A stretch of 64,000 nucleotides of DNA from Chrysomallon squamiferum (taxonomy: Eukaryota; Animalia; Mollusca), in assembly GCA_012295275.1 (NCBI GenBank), contig CM022665.1, positions 4,650,001 through 4,714,000 of the forward strand. The letters are read 5' to 3'. Position 1 is the stretch's first letter; every line of letters starts with the position of its first letter. The notes below the pieces were generated by a model. It was not told the origin of the DNA. It worked only from the letters and a program-made list of their open reading frames with translations, and did not search any database. Made by a program: the position numbers and the translations under genes. Of the stretch, positions 2,195 through 63,310 are shown in pieces.

Positions 2195-2259
2195 TTATTC
2201 AATTTTATTCAGTTTTCTGACCATTCGTTCGAAATCCTGAGCTTTGATCTTGCTATTCC
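2195..2259 (-). pseudogene. Orphan exon 4 of the peptide/EF-hand family (relic gene; exons 1-3 missing)
   Basis: Minus strand CTAG|GG AAT AGC AAG ATC...GAA TAA translates to (G)NSKIKAQDFERMVRKLNKIE*, homologous to exon 4 of the intact copies. A family promoter remnant lies at ~2555-2760 (TATAAA at 2559-2564) with exon 1 deleted. Confidence 0.8.
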
Positions 2260-3959
2260 CTAGTAATAGAGTATTTTAACATAAAAGAATGAAAATGGAA
2301 AAAAAAATTTAATCAAACATATGATCTGTGTGAATCGGAAAAGAGAAAAATGTGAGTAAAAAAAAAAAAATAATAATAATATATATATATGTATATAACA
2401 TTTTGATTTTAACAGTCAAAAAAATAAATCAATAAACAAATTTGTTTTAATTTTTTTTTTTTTTTTTTTGAACTATTACAATAAAACACAAATTATTAAG
2501 CTTAAAGTGTCAGAATGTTCACATAAACCAAAATTGTATTAAGTAATAGCACAGTTACTTTATATCCAACTGGTGTTTTTATTTTCACTTAGATCAGAGA
2601 TAAAATGTGAGATCTTATTAATTCGATGATAGCTACATCCTGTTAATGCAATATTTTGCCGAAGTGAAGTAACCAGACAGTAAAAACATTTTTTTTTTTA
2701 ATTTGAAAAATCCCGAGCTTTCGATTCTAAACAACACATTATGGCAACAGAGAATGGAATTTCTCGTTTTTCGTACAGAAAAACATACAAAAACGAAAGT
2801 TAATCATTGAAAAGTATGCATACCGGATATTATTTTTGTTGTAAGATTTCTATTATGATATCACATTCTAATTAAAAGGAAACCTCAGCTTTTTATTTCG
2901 TTATCATTCTTCTTCATGAAATACTATATTCTTTAAATCTATTTATTTAAATTTATTTATTTATAATTAATATAGATCGTATCTGAATGCACCTAATTTA
3001 ATAAACGTTATTTCCAGAGTCTTATTGAATTGAAAAGTATACGATTAATTTATTGAAATACAGAATACATTAATTTTTGTACTTTTTGTATCATGAAATT
3101 ATAACATGAAAACAACTTAGACAGGATCCTGTCCTTTTAGCAGACTTCATCTTTTAAAGCACTTAAAAATTAAAAGAGAACATAAATGATTTTCGTATCC
3201 ATATCAAAGCAAGCACTTTTTTCATATTAATTTTAATGAACACTCGAGATACTGAAATCAGTTCCGCTCTTTTGAAAGATAGCACCTGGACTATTTGTTA
3301 TTTCTACACTTTATTAAAATGTTTTTGTTATCCTGGAATGAAAACCTTTAATCTTCTATAATAAATCTGACTTATTTTGTTTCTAAAGCTCCAAAATATA
3401 CAAAGACTTATTGGTTGCACATACATATACATACATATAGAGATATATACACACATTCATATACTCTCTAGATACACACAGTAAAATTAAACAAACCGTT
3501 TTCAGTTTCATAATTTTATTTGTTTCTTAATAATTATCTTCATGGTCCTTCACGTGGAACCTGATAAAAAAGAAAAGGAAATTAAAAGAAAGGAATAATA
3601 ATTTGAGAATCTTTAAAATTTTATTTTATGCTATACACGTACTTGTTACACTACAACCAGTCTTGAGTTAAAACGGAGAAGAAGAAGAAAAAGATGAGGA
3701 GGAGGAGGGGAGGGGGAGGGGATGAGGAAAAGATAAAATAAAAAACAAATTACTGGACAATATAATTTACTGCCACTTAAATGAGAGGTTTTATTAACTT
3801 TTAAACATTAACAACAACAACAACAACAACAACAACAATAATAATAACTACCTCCGAAAGGTAATGAAAAAAAAATAAAATAAAAAAAAAAATAAAAAAA
3901 AAATAACGTACAACAATCGTATGATAAGTTACAAGTGAAATACCGAAAAAGATTTACTT

Positions 3960-5041
3960 TTATTCATGTTCATTCAGTTCTCTGACCATTCGCTGCAAAT
4001 CCCGAGTTGCGATCTCGGCGTTTCCTAGCAACAAAAATCATTCAGACGATAATAATAATAATAATAATAATAATAATAATAAATGCTATTTTACTGAGAG
4101 AAAGAAAGAGACAGTCCATCAAAACAATAATACTGTTAGTCCACACTTTTTATAATTTTAAAAATCTCTTTTCAAAGCTGCTTTTTACTCAGCCCAGATA
4201 ATAAATCTACGACTGACACCTTTCTTTAGTTAAGCCTATTTTTATTGTTCTAACTTTCCTTCTTAGAATCTCAGCATTTTAAACAATTTCATTTCGTTCT
4301 TAGAATTACTGATCTGTTAACATTAATGTTATCTAGTTTTTAAAATGACTTACCATCCTCGCTAAGAAGTTCGAGAAAATTCTCAGCGTCTCGTCGACTC
4401 ATTATTTGTTCAAGTTCTTGTTGGTCCACGATCCCGTCCATGTTGGTATCGATCTCCGAAACGTCTTAAATAAATGTATTCATTTAAACTCACAGATAAA
4501 GTCACTGAATTAAGCACATTATAATTTAGTGTAAGCAACATTACAGTAATTGAACTTTGTTTTAAACTGTGTTAAGAAATTATATATACCTATACATGCA
4601 AACCATAATTAATTGAAAAGGCAAAATAAGTATTTTTCATATTCAGGTAAGAATCATTGTATGTGAAGATATAGGAAGTATTCTTCGTGTTAATTTCAGA
4701 TATATAATTCTTCCTCCCTTTTATATATTACGGATCTGGAGGTTTTAACCTGATGTTACCATTTTAATGAGTTTTCAAAATACAACAGTCTTTCAAATTC
4801 TACATTTTCAAGACAGCTGTCAGATAAATGCTAAAAACTAAACATTATTTAACAAGAATGGAATCAAAACCTAATTCCCATTCATACCTCGTTTTCCGAA
4901 AAGTGATGCTACCGCTCCTACTGCTGCCGCAGCTGCCCCGACTCTACTAGCAGTCTCTCTGACTCGTCTCCAGGTAGTAAACCATGCGTCACCCTGATTT
5001 AGGACAGCGAACACAACCACAAGAAGAAAACCAATTCTCAT
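3960..5041 (-). CDS. g1: secreted cationic peptide + EF-hand precursor, 109 aa, intact; predicted mature peptide WFTTWRRVRETASRVGAAAAAVGAVASLF-amide
   Basis: Coding exons 5041-4888, 4464-4354 and 4024-3960, all with AG/GT boundaries and phase-1 introns. Spliced product: MRIGFLLVVVFAVLNQGDA|WFTTWRRVRETASRVGAAAAAVGAVASLF|GKR|DVSEIDTNMDGIVDQQELEQIMSRRDAENFLELLSEDGNAEIATRDLQRMVRELNEHE*. Confidence 0.88.
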
Positions 5042-60730: not shown

Positions 60731-63166
60731 CTGTAGAAAAAATAGACAAAAGATTTGTCAACAATAAATAGTATTAAATAAATTAATTAATTAAAACAAG
60801 ACATAAGAAAAAATAAATTAAAAACCCAGAACATAATAATAGCATATAAACTGTCAATATGTTATTCATTTATTTTTATTTTTTGGATTTTCTACGTCCA
60901 GTAATAGCACAGAGATGAGAATAAATAAAAGCTTTATGACTTACGTTTGAGCTGTAAACTGATTACTCGAAGAAGAAATGAATAAAATTGTTATCGAACT
61001 CAGATACTTTATATCCAACTGGTGTTTTTATTTTCACTTAGATGAGAAATAAAATGTGAGATCTTATTAATGCGGTGATAGCTACATCCTGTTATTGCAA
61101 TATGTTGCCAAAGTGAAGTAACACGATAGTGAAAACAAATTAAAACAAAAATCCTGACCCTTCGATTCTGAAGAGACGTTATGACAATAGAGAATGGAAT
61201 TTTTTCAACATTTTGTTTTAATAAATTAGAAACTGTGATTATTTTGGTGGGTTGTAGAGTTTAGTTTTTATTTATTTAACTAGTTCGACTAGAGAAGAAC
61301 TTACTTTTGTTATTTTATTTTATATTACGTTTCTATAAAAAAATGTATCTATATTATTTATTTTTTTTTAATTTATTATTTATAGGTACAAGTCTTTGCT
61401 AAGAAATGAAGATACACAGAAACGCATTTCTTGTTTTTCGTACAGAGAAACATACAAACACGAAAGTTAATTATTGAAAAATATGAATACTGGTATTATT
61501 TTTGTTGTCAGATTTTCATTATGAAATCACATTCTAATATGAATAAAACGCTATATTTTGTTTATTTTTGTATTTAGTTATATATAATTAAGATTATTAA
61601 TTTTTTTACCTAGATGTGCATTTTACATAGCATTTGAACTTTATATTTATGAAGGGCAGGATGACATTATATTTGTATCACTGTACCGGCAACATGATCC
61701 AGTGTATAACACGTTTTCACAAAATTAATTTCCAACAGATTCAATAAACATCCGGTTAACTGATTGCTGATGATACGTTATACATATATCAATTAACGTT
61801 GCAGCATATTGCATTATCACAGGATCTACCCATCATCACACTGTAAAGTTTTCACACTTTTTCGCTGACAAAGTTATACCAGTATAAGGTAACTGACTAC
61901 ATTATACCACTGAAATATAACGCCGTACTAAACCTTCTTTTATTTTCTATAATTTTTAGATTTATTTATTTATTTATTTAATAGTGGATTATCAGCAATA
62001 GTAGTGGTAATAGTAAAGAAAGGAACATAAGTTTTATTAAACGCCGTACTAAACCTTTTTTTATTTTATGTTTTATTTATTTATTTATTTTTTATTTATT
62101 TTTTTATTTACTTATTTATTAATTTATATATATATATATATATATATATATTTATTTATTATTCTTGTTTTACCTTAAATATTTGATATATTGCAGTATT
62201 ATCCAAATGTTTGTTCTGTACATTATGTCATGATATAACATCAGCATTCGGGATACTACCAATATTTCCAGGGGATTTCAGTTTGTTACGGTTTAAAATG
62301 CATGATCTGTACTACTACGACATTATGTTTGTATGACTGTATCGGTAACATGATCATCTATAACACGATATCATATCATACTGCATTAACACAGCATCTA
62401 CTTATCATCACAATGATAAGTTTTACACTTTGTCGCTAATTTAAATGAATTTAAATATACCATTTTATAATAGTATGAGGTAACTGACTACATTATCAAT
62501 TTTAAACACAGAAAAAAAAATACGAAATAAACAAAAAATAAAACTTTAGTGGGTTTCTTTTATATTTCTTTAATATTGTAATAGTAATAATAGTCGTTGT
62601 GTTAGCCGTAGCATTAACAGTAATGTTATTAGATAATTTTTAATAGTAGTAGTAGCAATAGCCGTGGTAGTAGCAGTAGCGGTAGTAGTAGTAGTAGTAG
62701 TAGTAAAAAAGGAAGATATATTTTACTGAAACCAGGACTAAATTTTTTTCATTTCTTTTTTCTTTTTCTTATTACTTTAAATCTATGATATATTGTCTTA
62801 CATACGTAGCACAAATCAATAATAATAATCAAACAAACAAAATAAAATAAAAATTGGCAATTTATTTGCTAACATTATCATCGTCGATGTTTTGTTGTTG
62901 TTTTTTGAAATTTTAATCTTTTTAACAGTTCTAAGCTACCATAGAATTATTAGTTATTATTTCGTTTTATACTGAGAAATCGGGATATTGTTTATTTATT
63001 TCTCAGATTGTTGCTGTTGCTGTTTACTACTGTCCATTATTAGTATTATTTAAAAGTAAAAGAAATAATTTATTTATATGGCAAATTCAAGACAGCTGTC
63101 AGATAAATGCTTAATACTAAACATTATTTAAAAAGAATGGAACCAAAACCTGATTCCCATTTATAC

Positions 63167-63310
63167 CTCGCTTTCCCTTAACTGCTGTGTCGCTATTTTC
63201 CCGGCTCTTCTTGCAACCTCTCTGACTCGTCTCCAAGAAGTAAACCAAGCGTCGCTCTGATTTAGAACAACGAACAGAACCATTAGCACAAGAATAAAAG
63301 CAATTCTTAT
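63167..63310 (-). pseudogene. g13: orphan exon 2, paralogue of g5 (WFTSWRRVREVARRAGKIAT...); start ATA and 1-bp deletion
   Basis: ATTCAG|ATA AGA ATT at 63310. The exon is 144 nt versus 145 nt in g5 (ACTGCTGTGTCG versus ACTGCTGCTGTCG). No exons 3-4 follow. Confidence 0.8.

Follow-up and report, generated by a model that had tools for sequence, protein, structure and literature searches.

A stretch of 64,000 nucleotides (nt) from the vent snail Chrysomallon squamiferum (GenBank assembly GCA_012295275.1, contig CM022665.1, positions 4,650,001 to 4,714,000; called here the window, with positions counted from its first letter) carries a tandem array of related genes that probably encode a gastropod family of secreted, linear, amidated host-defence peptides. 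The family is real and spliced, apparently unnamed, and joins two known features of antimicrobial peptide (AMP) precursors: a short cationic peptide would be released in amidated form from a secreted three-part precursor, whose acidic remainder is predicted to be an EF-hand pair. Relatives occur in the peltospirid Gigantopelta aegis and in abalones (Haliotis).

A tandem array of spliced genes

Within the window a six-frame motif scan, BLAST searches with parts of one copy and splice-site modelling place 16 related loci (A to P) on both strands, from 2195 to 63310. Exon 2, which encodes the signal and the peptide, is present in 12 loci, the 111-nt EF-hand exon (exon 3) in 10, one of them 5'-truncated, and the last coding exon (exon 4) in 13. 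Seven loci (B, E, G, I, J, K and O) are intact, giving after splicing a frame from ATG to stop of 99-118 amino acids (aa) with GT-AG ends at every coding intron. The other nine are defective: exon 3 of D contains a stop, the start of M is gone, L and P carry frameshifts, the splice donor of F is lost, and only remnants left by deletion are seen of A, C, H and N. An earlier reading of this DNA, made from its letters and open reading frames (the sequence-only reading), had counted at least 16 loci and seven intact copies. Its other figures also hold in all seven: a Cys-free peptide of 17-36 aa starting with W and carrying a charge of +3 to +11, a cleavage motif GKR, GRR or GRKR, and an acidic propiece of 58 aa. 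GKR is used in five copies, GRR in one and GRKR in one, and the charge of the propiece is -10 to -13. The loci are listed below.

Locus A, 2195..2585, minus strand: remnant; promoter/TATA fragment 2556-2585 and exon 4 2195-2259; exons 2 and 3 absent.
Locus B, 3515..5420, minus strand: intact; TATA box ~5399; non-coding exon 1 ends at 5331; exon 2 4888-5041 with signal, peptide WFTTWRRVRETASRVGAAAAAVGAVASLF (29 aa, +3) and GKR; exon 3 4354-4464; exon 4 coding 3960-4024; non-coding exon 5 from 3560; AATAAA ~3520.
Locus C, 11445..12292, minus strand: remnant; 5'-truncated exon 3, exon 4 without acceptor, exon 5.
Locus D, 14896..16763, plus strand: full exon set; in-frame stop in exon 3 (15739-15849).
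Locus E, 18851..20183, minus strand: frame intact; exon 2 19731-19878, peptide WPRFRIKIRWRRVIYILKRIPRANS (25 aa, +9); exon 3 19207-19317; exon 4 18851-18915; exon-5 acceptor lost.
Locus F, 22388..22532, minus strand: exon 2 alone; splice donor lost.
Locus G, 25914..28019, plus strand: intact, divergent lineage; exon 1 ends at 26003; exon 2 26314-26494, peptide WPRIRIRIRWRRVRDFAKRAAARWAIKKAAALAVAA (36 aa, +11); exon 3 26978-27088; exon 4 27512-27576; exon-5-like block from 27955; two canonical EF loops.
Locus H, 30953..31330, minus strand: remnant, A-like.
Locus I, 32426..34959, minus strand: intact; exon 2 34267-34435, peptide WFIRIRWRRVRETASRVGTAAAAVGAVATLF (31 aa, +5) followed by GRKR; exon 3 33416-33526; exon 4 32957-33021; exon 5 from 32481.
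Locus J, 40776..42841, minus strand: intact; exon 1 ends at 42752; exon 2 42475-42643, peptide WGRFRVRIPWREVRDYAKKWAVQKGIETAVAA (32 aa, +5); exon 3 41692-41802; exon 4 41148-41212; exon 5 in 40776-40862.
Locus K, 46967..48945, minus strand: intact; exon 2 48250-48388, Lys/Trp peptide without Arg WKWTWKNIGKIAAAVGAAAAVM (22 aa, +3) followed by GRR; exon 3 47702-47812; exon 4 47374-47438; exon 5 in 46967-47043.
Locus L, 50481..50862, minus strand: exons 1 and 2 alone; exon 2 frameshifted.
Locus M, 53651..55778, plus strand: recent copy of G; start codon lost.
Locus N, 57716..58114, minus strand: remnant, A-like.
Locus O, 59286..61034, minus strand: intact; exon 2 60607-60730, peptide WPRYRVRIDVSNLIRRL (17 aa, +4); exon 3 60125-60235; exon 4 59751-59815; exon 5 in 59286-59372.
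Locus P, 63167..63310, minus strand: exon 2 alone; start codon lost and frameshift.

Blocks repeat every 27-30 kb along the window and are ~82-97% identical. Since they are not identical, the array is a nested tandem duplication rather than a collapsed assembly copy. The GC content of the window is 28.9%; that given for Gigantopelta aegis in bioRxiv 2020.09.23.308304 is 37.22%.

Splicing is documented in RNA from 4 of the 15 public runs listed for locus B, compared with locus B alone; runs X9 and X12, with a small share of matching words, were used for spliced joints only. In a contig from run X8, an exon 2 identical to that of B is linked to exon 3 at 4464/4888, the ends being canonical. A contig from run X9, for which no library is recorded, connects exons 3 and 4 at ~4024/4354. 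The loose end of the X9 contig matches sequence downstream of J and C (a J-type exon 5) that lies after a polypyrimidine-CAG acceptor and before an AATAAA, and therefore represents a fifth, non-coding exon. The expected splicing is thus seen, and the four-exon gene of the sequence-only reading becomes one of five exons, the fifth being 3' untranslated. The intron leading to it opens 2 nt past the stop codon; in E the coding frame is open but the acceptor of exon 5 is gone. Exon 1 is non-coding and lies 3' of a TATA box, recognizable in most of the 13 promoter copies, and its intron ends immediately before the ATG. Among the X13 contigs, one loose end corresponds to the end of exon 2 of O, spliced to exon 3 (compared by eye), and another to the 5' end of J. 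In X9 and X12 the end of exon 2 matches no window copy, and one J-like X13 contig appears to be ~15 nt longer in exon 2 than J, as estimated from the contig layout; paralogues or alleles beyond the window copies therefore exist.

Two side observations concern the ends of the genes. In 7 of the 9 copies with complete exons that were checked, an AATAAA overlaps the stop codon (3958-3965 and equivalents), and the donor follows 2 nt on, so that splicing to exon 5 may face competition from polyadenylation at exon 4. The remnants A, H and N (2556-2585, 31301-31330 and 58085-58114) share one deletion that starts just past the TATA box, and a kB-like 10-mer at -141 is exclusive to their promoters.

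Peptide, propiece and relatives

The predicted mature peptides of the intact loci lie wholly within exon 2. They follow signals that end in LNQ[G/S]DA and have no Cys, and the residues at -3 and -1 before the peptide are small in 14 of 14 cases checked. In D, E, G, J, M and O, six of the 10 peptides tested, an N-terminal stretch of alternating Arg and hydrophobic residues produces a strand-type moment above that of shuffled sequences. The likeness to cecropins, piscidins and styelins raised by the sequence-only reading survives only as an analogy: at E values up to 1, none of five window exon-2 queries and none of six database proteins matches the cecropin or pleurocidin-piscidin families of Pfam. 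The best matches in that scan, Moricin (E 0.04) and Penaeidin (E 0.14), lie far below the cut-off. All Atlas matches score below 0.9; a pleurocidin-family cluster, the sole feature match listed for exon 2 of G, scores 0.76, below the bar of the tool.

Relatives were collected by profile searches and cluster look-ups. Among the best 150 matches of a HMMER search with an exon-3 profile, 145 had several matching stretches and were dropped as presumed generic EF-hand proteins; the other five are single matches over nearly the whole profile, four of them from Gigantopelta aegis (Peltospiridae, Neomphalina). In two further profile searches 7 of 15 and 12 of 32 matches, all with E >1e-4, were set aside as generic EF-hand proteins, two having been inspected. 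Window exon 3, compared with longer proteins by shared words, gave nothing among 22 candidates. The full-length homologues occupy ten Gigantopelta aegis loci on three contigs (LOC121370314, 121372037, 121369819, 121376201, 121370853, 121370472, 121373945, 121371582, 121369634 and 121376864), eight loci on one contig of Haliotis rufescens and five on one contig of H. rubra, with further copies in H. cracherodii and H. asinina; LOC124133573-585 are among the Haliotis genes. The search for invertebrate relatives thus reaches Gigantopelta and four abalones and no named family: every named record is an ‘uncharacterized protein’. The absence of a recognized family name is thereby confirmed; the expectation that annotation would miss such genes is not, as RefSeq holds the Gigantopelta and Haliotis genes, although without a family name.

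The plan of the precursor is kept throughout these proteins. In 33 of 33, GKR stands immediately before the propiece, the peptide is net-positive and the propiece carries a charge of -9 to -18. The peptide starts with W in 30 and with F in three, and Cys is absent from 31 and present once in the other two. Window propieces are nearest to those of Gigantopelta: of the 58 residues in the propiece of G, 36 recur in P0152 and 17 in the main Haliotis type. A tree of 60 propiece columns gives the window genes no firm position among the Gigantopelta genes. Two Gigantopelta isoforms part at the position of the window exon 3/4 joint, and two gene models carry intron-like residues just upstream of the start, which suggests that the Gigantopelta genes have the same exon layout. 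P0188 and P0169 (H. cracherodii) and P0027, P0063 and P0172 (Gigantopelta) are models that carry additional residues at the N terminus or internally, which probably reflects mis-splicing or the fusion of neighbouring copies. A 62-aa frame on an ENA contig (P0098) matches exon 3, with the match ending at the same intron position, and points to a further organism carrying the family.

Judged by loop pattern, Pfam scores and a structural model, the propiece is an EF-hand pair (PF00036/PF13499 type), where the sequence-only reading had seen a single loop. Loop 1 is canonical (ligands at 1, 3, 5, 9 and 12 of the 12-residue loop) in all seven intact genes. Loop 2 spans the boundary between exons 3 and 4. 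G and most Gigantopelta copies have it in canonical form; in the other six intact genes it is decayed, with Asp lost from position 1 and Asp in place of Glu at 12, and it is absent from the main Haliotis clade. The Pfam cut-off for EF-hand_1 is passed by four of six full-length database homologues, over two stretches each. An AlphaFold model of a Gigantopelta homologue, built from 28 sequences, displays three helices and a couple of short strands, as an EF pair does, together with a long helix over the peptide; a first fold with five sequences (pLDDT 47) was dropped as uninformative. Nearly all structural neighbours of this propiece model belong to the EF-hand proteins, the best VIA neighbour having a Z of 7.5 and a root-mean-square deviation of 2.1 over 71 aligned residues, and a sequence search of the PDB gave generic EF-hand proteins only. 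The propiece likely binds calcium, and a calcium-dependent role for loop 1 is plausible. The entering helix of an EF-hand measures ~9 residues. Only five residues separate KR from loop 1, so that in the precursor the entering helix of the first EF-hand would run across the cleavage site. The linker between the hands reads S-R-R-D in B-type copies (e.g. 4399-4410, minus strand) versus T-R-D in most homologues; its Arg is invariant in 19 of 19 aligned homologues, and the RR of the B type could be a second cleavage site.

Diversity among the paralogues is concentrated in the peptide. Seven loci outside the G/M lineage were compared in 21 pairs. Their DNA is 68% identical across the peptide, compared with 89% across the signal, 97% across exon 3, 95% across the final 120 nt of intron 2 and 87% across exon 4. 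Nearest neighbours differ from segment to segment: the peptide of B is closest to that of I, but its exon 4 to that of O, and D is nearest to E by its peptide but to K at the 3' end. A mosaic signal appears in four of four triplets and is reached by at most 1 of 5000 permutations, the triplets having been picked after the identities were seen and the divergent peptide of K inflating the exon-2 count in two of them. Synonymous sites provide a cleaner test. E and G differ at 0 of 17 such sites in the signal and at 13 of 33 in the propiece (p=0.002), which points to an exchange of exon-2 segments between lineages and to mosaic genes. The pooled ratio of non-synonymous to synonymous change (pN/pS) is 0.78 for the peptide, 0.54 for the signal and 0.49 for the propiece.

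A proposed mechanism, its precedents and its rivals

How would such a precursor work? By established secretory biochemistry, signal peptidase would cut after [G/S]-D-A, before W. The same biochemistry, with the invariance of GKR, predicts that a prohormone convertase cuts after KR or RR and that carboxypeptidase and PAM leave a C-terminal amide from the Gly. The acidic propiece would likely keep the peptide inactive in transit. The released peptides would then act at an epithelial or mucosal surface by permeabilizing bacterial membranes, as the myticalins discussed below lead one to suppose. We infer a membrane-directed antimicrobial action because of the charge, the composition, the pattern of diversification and the myticalin analogy; the cationic peptide likely kills microbes. 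New peptides would arise on a constant signal and propiece through exchange of exon-2 segments, insertions and deletions, and gene birth and death. That the propiece neutralizes the peptide along the secretory route while calcium binding helps granule sorting or release is a tentative elaboration, which we would sooner expect to fail than to hold even if the rest is right.

The closest known system, overlooked by the sequence-only reading, is formed by the myticalins and modiocalins of Mytilus and Modiolus (PMC5577615, PMC12294457). Myticalin precursors comprise a signal, a cationic Cys-free peptide, a dibasic site and an anionic extension, and several myticalins have minimal inhibitory concentrations of 1-8 uM (PMC5577615). 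The two systems share the hypervariability of the peptide, a dibasic site often preceded by Gly, a non-coding exon 1 with its intron immediately before the ATG, an exon 2 holding signal, peptide and cleavage site, a phase-1 intron 2 (1 nt past the dibasic site in the window, a few residues past it in myticalins) and gene clusters that include pseudogenes. Likewise, Arg exceeds 10% of the mature peptide in six of the seven intact window peptides by hand count, K having none, and to the eye the starts of myticalin D (Table 1 of PMC5577615) resemble the J start WGRFRVRIP. Myticalin genes have three exons, however, whereas the window family has five; the window signals, compared by eye, lack the Cys of the myticalin consensus MKGXXLLLLTIXXALCMIXECEG (PMC5577615) and end in LNQ[G/S]DA; the myticalin extension is described as low-complexity (PMC12294457), unlike an EF-hand pair; and the window-family peptides are Pro-poor. 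The window family occurs in gastropods, while myticalins are reported to be restricted to Mytilida, with no BLAST or hidden Markov model matches outside bivalves (PMC5577615). No protein named from Mytilus or Modiolus is found among the 15 and 32 profile-search matches, in searches that need shared 5-residue words.

The second precedent is the mytimycins of Mytilida, cited by the sequence-only reading as Cys-rich peptides with an EF-hand propiece and so described in print: behind a dibasic site comes an anionic EF-hand propiece to which no function is assigned (PMC8004829). In the A-type sequences (PMC8004829, supplement) the propiece resembles ours by eye in having two EF loops and in starting with D-V-S. 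Mature mytimycins contain 10-14 Cys, as against none in all seven window peptides, and the sequences compared (PMC8004829) have no amidation Gly. Their first EF helix is complete after the cut, with 17 residues before loop 1 versus five in the window family, and their loops are spaced by 35 residues versus 29 (both by eye). The family would work like the myticalins but is classed with neither the myticalins nor the mytimycins. More distant are piscidins and pleurocidins, styelins and clavanins, and cecropins, in which a signal precedes a cationic, often amidated peptide, in several cases with an anionic C-terminal propiece. They come from other phyla, the window family has no Pfam match to them, and none of them is known to have an EF-hand propiece. 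Calmodulin lobes, polcalcin and centrin are among the fold neighbours of the propiece model, and lobes of this type bind basic amphipathic helices, with melittin complexes among the listed entries (3qrx, 8aht). With Z below 8, this likeness would speak for a common fold only, not for function; unlike these proteins, the propiece is secreted, consists of a single lobe, has a first helix shortened by the processing site and often has a decayed loop 2.

Several results weigh against the host-defence model as proposed. kB-like sites occur in none of the 10 promoters outside the remnants and only in the three deleted remnants, so that the promoters lend no support to immune induction. The 18-residue helical moment exceeds that of shuffles in only one of seven window peptides (8 of 21 overall; 7 of 14 database peptides), and the description of a cationic head followed by a hydrophobic Ala/Val tail therefore suits the window peptides better than that of ideal amphipathic helices. 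At 0.78, pN/pS for the peptide stays below 1 in the test for positive selection, and the excess of replacements between D and E is not significant (p 0.19-0.67). On the side of the propiece, window exon 3 alone falls below the cut-off of the EF-hand Pfam profiles (E ~1e-4). The AlphaFold model is of low confidence (pLDDT 56, pTM 0.31), and no Foldseek match of the propiece model reaches E 0.001. The decay of loop 2 and its loss from the main Haliotis clade indicate that a two-site calcium switch would not be essential to the family, and argue against an obligatory one.

Four other explanations have to be considered. The peptides might be broad cytolysins or deterrents, secreted in mucus and directed at predators, at fouling organisms or at parasites among the eukaryotes rather than mainly at bacteria, which we consider improbable. 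Lysis of eukaryotic membranes is within the reach of cationic peptides that are rich in Trp and Arg and have a hydrophobic amidated tail, but a high net charge favours anionic bacterial membranes, and the homologues come from non-venomous animals, abalones and a chemosymbiotic vent snail. Tandem hypervariable families with pseudogenes are, for their part, also typical of toxins (PMC5577615). There is a smaller chance that the acidic EF-hand domain is the main product, serving extracellular calcium handling or the mineralization of shell or scales, with the peptide as a by-product. The propiece is indeed the most conserved part, it is strongly acidic, and its loop 1 is canonical in every intact window gene; yet the amidation Gly, invariant in all 33 homologues, matters to the peptide only, most copies have a decayed loop 2 or have lost it, and it is the peptide that varies among paralogues. 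Very unlikely, in our judgement, is a neuropeptide or hormone precursor. Gly plus dibasic processing is common among neuropeptides, and Bogdanov et al. (1998) reportedly describe, to go by the title, a land-snail gene for putative neuropeptides with an EF-hand region, a study listed among the references of PMC8398477. Precursors of the land-snail HCS2 type yield several short amidated peptides sharing a C-terminal motif, whereas each window precursor has one long peptide without a conserved C-terminal motif; receptor ligands are normally conserved, but here 9 of 16 copies are broken and the peptides are mosaic. That the array is an assembly artefact or a functionless decaying repeat, for which the nine broken loci and the recurrence of blocks at 27-30 kb might speak, is scarcely credible, being largely refuted by splicing in RNA and conservation to abalones, along with blocks that are ~82-97% identical rather than identical and the pN/pS of propiece (0.49) and signal (0.54).

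We also considered a bolder extension of the host-defence model, which is unlikely to hold in full. It combines a calcium-gated antimicrobial, in which a calmodulin-like lobe, its first helix running through Gly-Lys-Arg, would hold its own Trp-anchored basic peptide until calcium binding or cleavage releases the peptide; a family ancestral to Neomphalina and Haliotis that, in chemosymbiotic vent snails, grew in number and was reshuffled so as to keep the symbiotic bacteria in check; and perhaps a common origin with the myticalins, in which the EF-hand tail would have decayed.

Other features of the window and significance

Among the genes lie decayed retroelement fragments (44005-44968, with related ones near 9014-9559, 13209-13916, 24154-24853, 38231-38740 and 52019-52749), which look DIRS-like by their motifs. 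One of their frames matches a reverse-transcriptase thumb domain weakly (E 0.0016, below the cut-off). They have been copied along with the segmental duplications and contain a 41-bp tandem repeat at 13505-13589 (2.1 copies) and 24221-24387 (4.1 copies). The adjoining segment 44969-46200 is GC-richer (43% in the bin 44001-46000), ends in a run of 38 T and is possibly a retrocopied insertion; the one frame of it that was scanned has no Pfam match.

What does the array mean for molluscan defence? A full-text literature search, which covers subscription journals, a frequent venue for abalone AMPs, thinly and bioRxiv supplements not at all, found no gastropod precursor of a linear amidated peptide with an EF-hand propiece, and the available parts of PMC11767717, PMC8398477, PMC5549309, PMC11359391, PMC3039611 and PMC2386466 do not describe the family. 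A 2025 review mentions scattered gastropod AMPs only, with no family of this plan in its section 4.7 (PMC11767717), and Cys-free molluscan AMPs are called rare in a paper of the same year (PMC12294457). As the relatives in vent snail and abalones have no family name, this is likely an undescribed mollusc defence family. If the proposal is correct, a multigene system of linear AMPs would be common to farmed abalones and symbiont-bearing vent snails, and dozens of natural peptides would be open to parallel synthesis. Moreover, the function of the EF-hand propiece of mytimycins would become testable, for nature offers two-loop, one-loop and partly decayed variants side by side.

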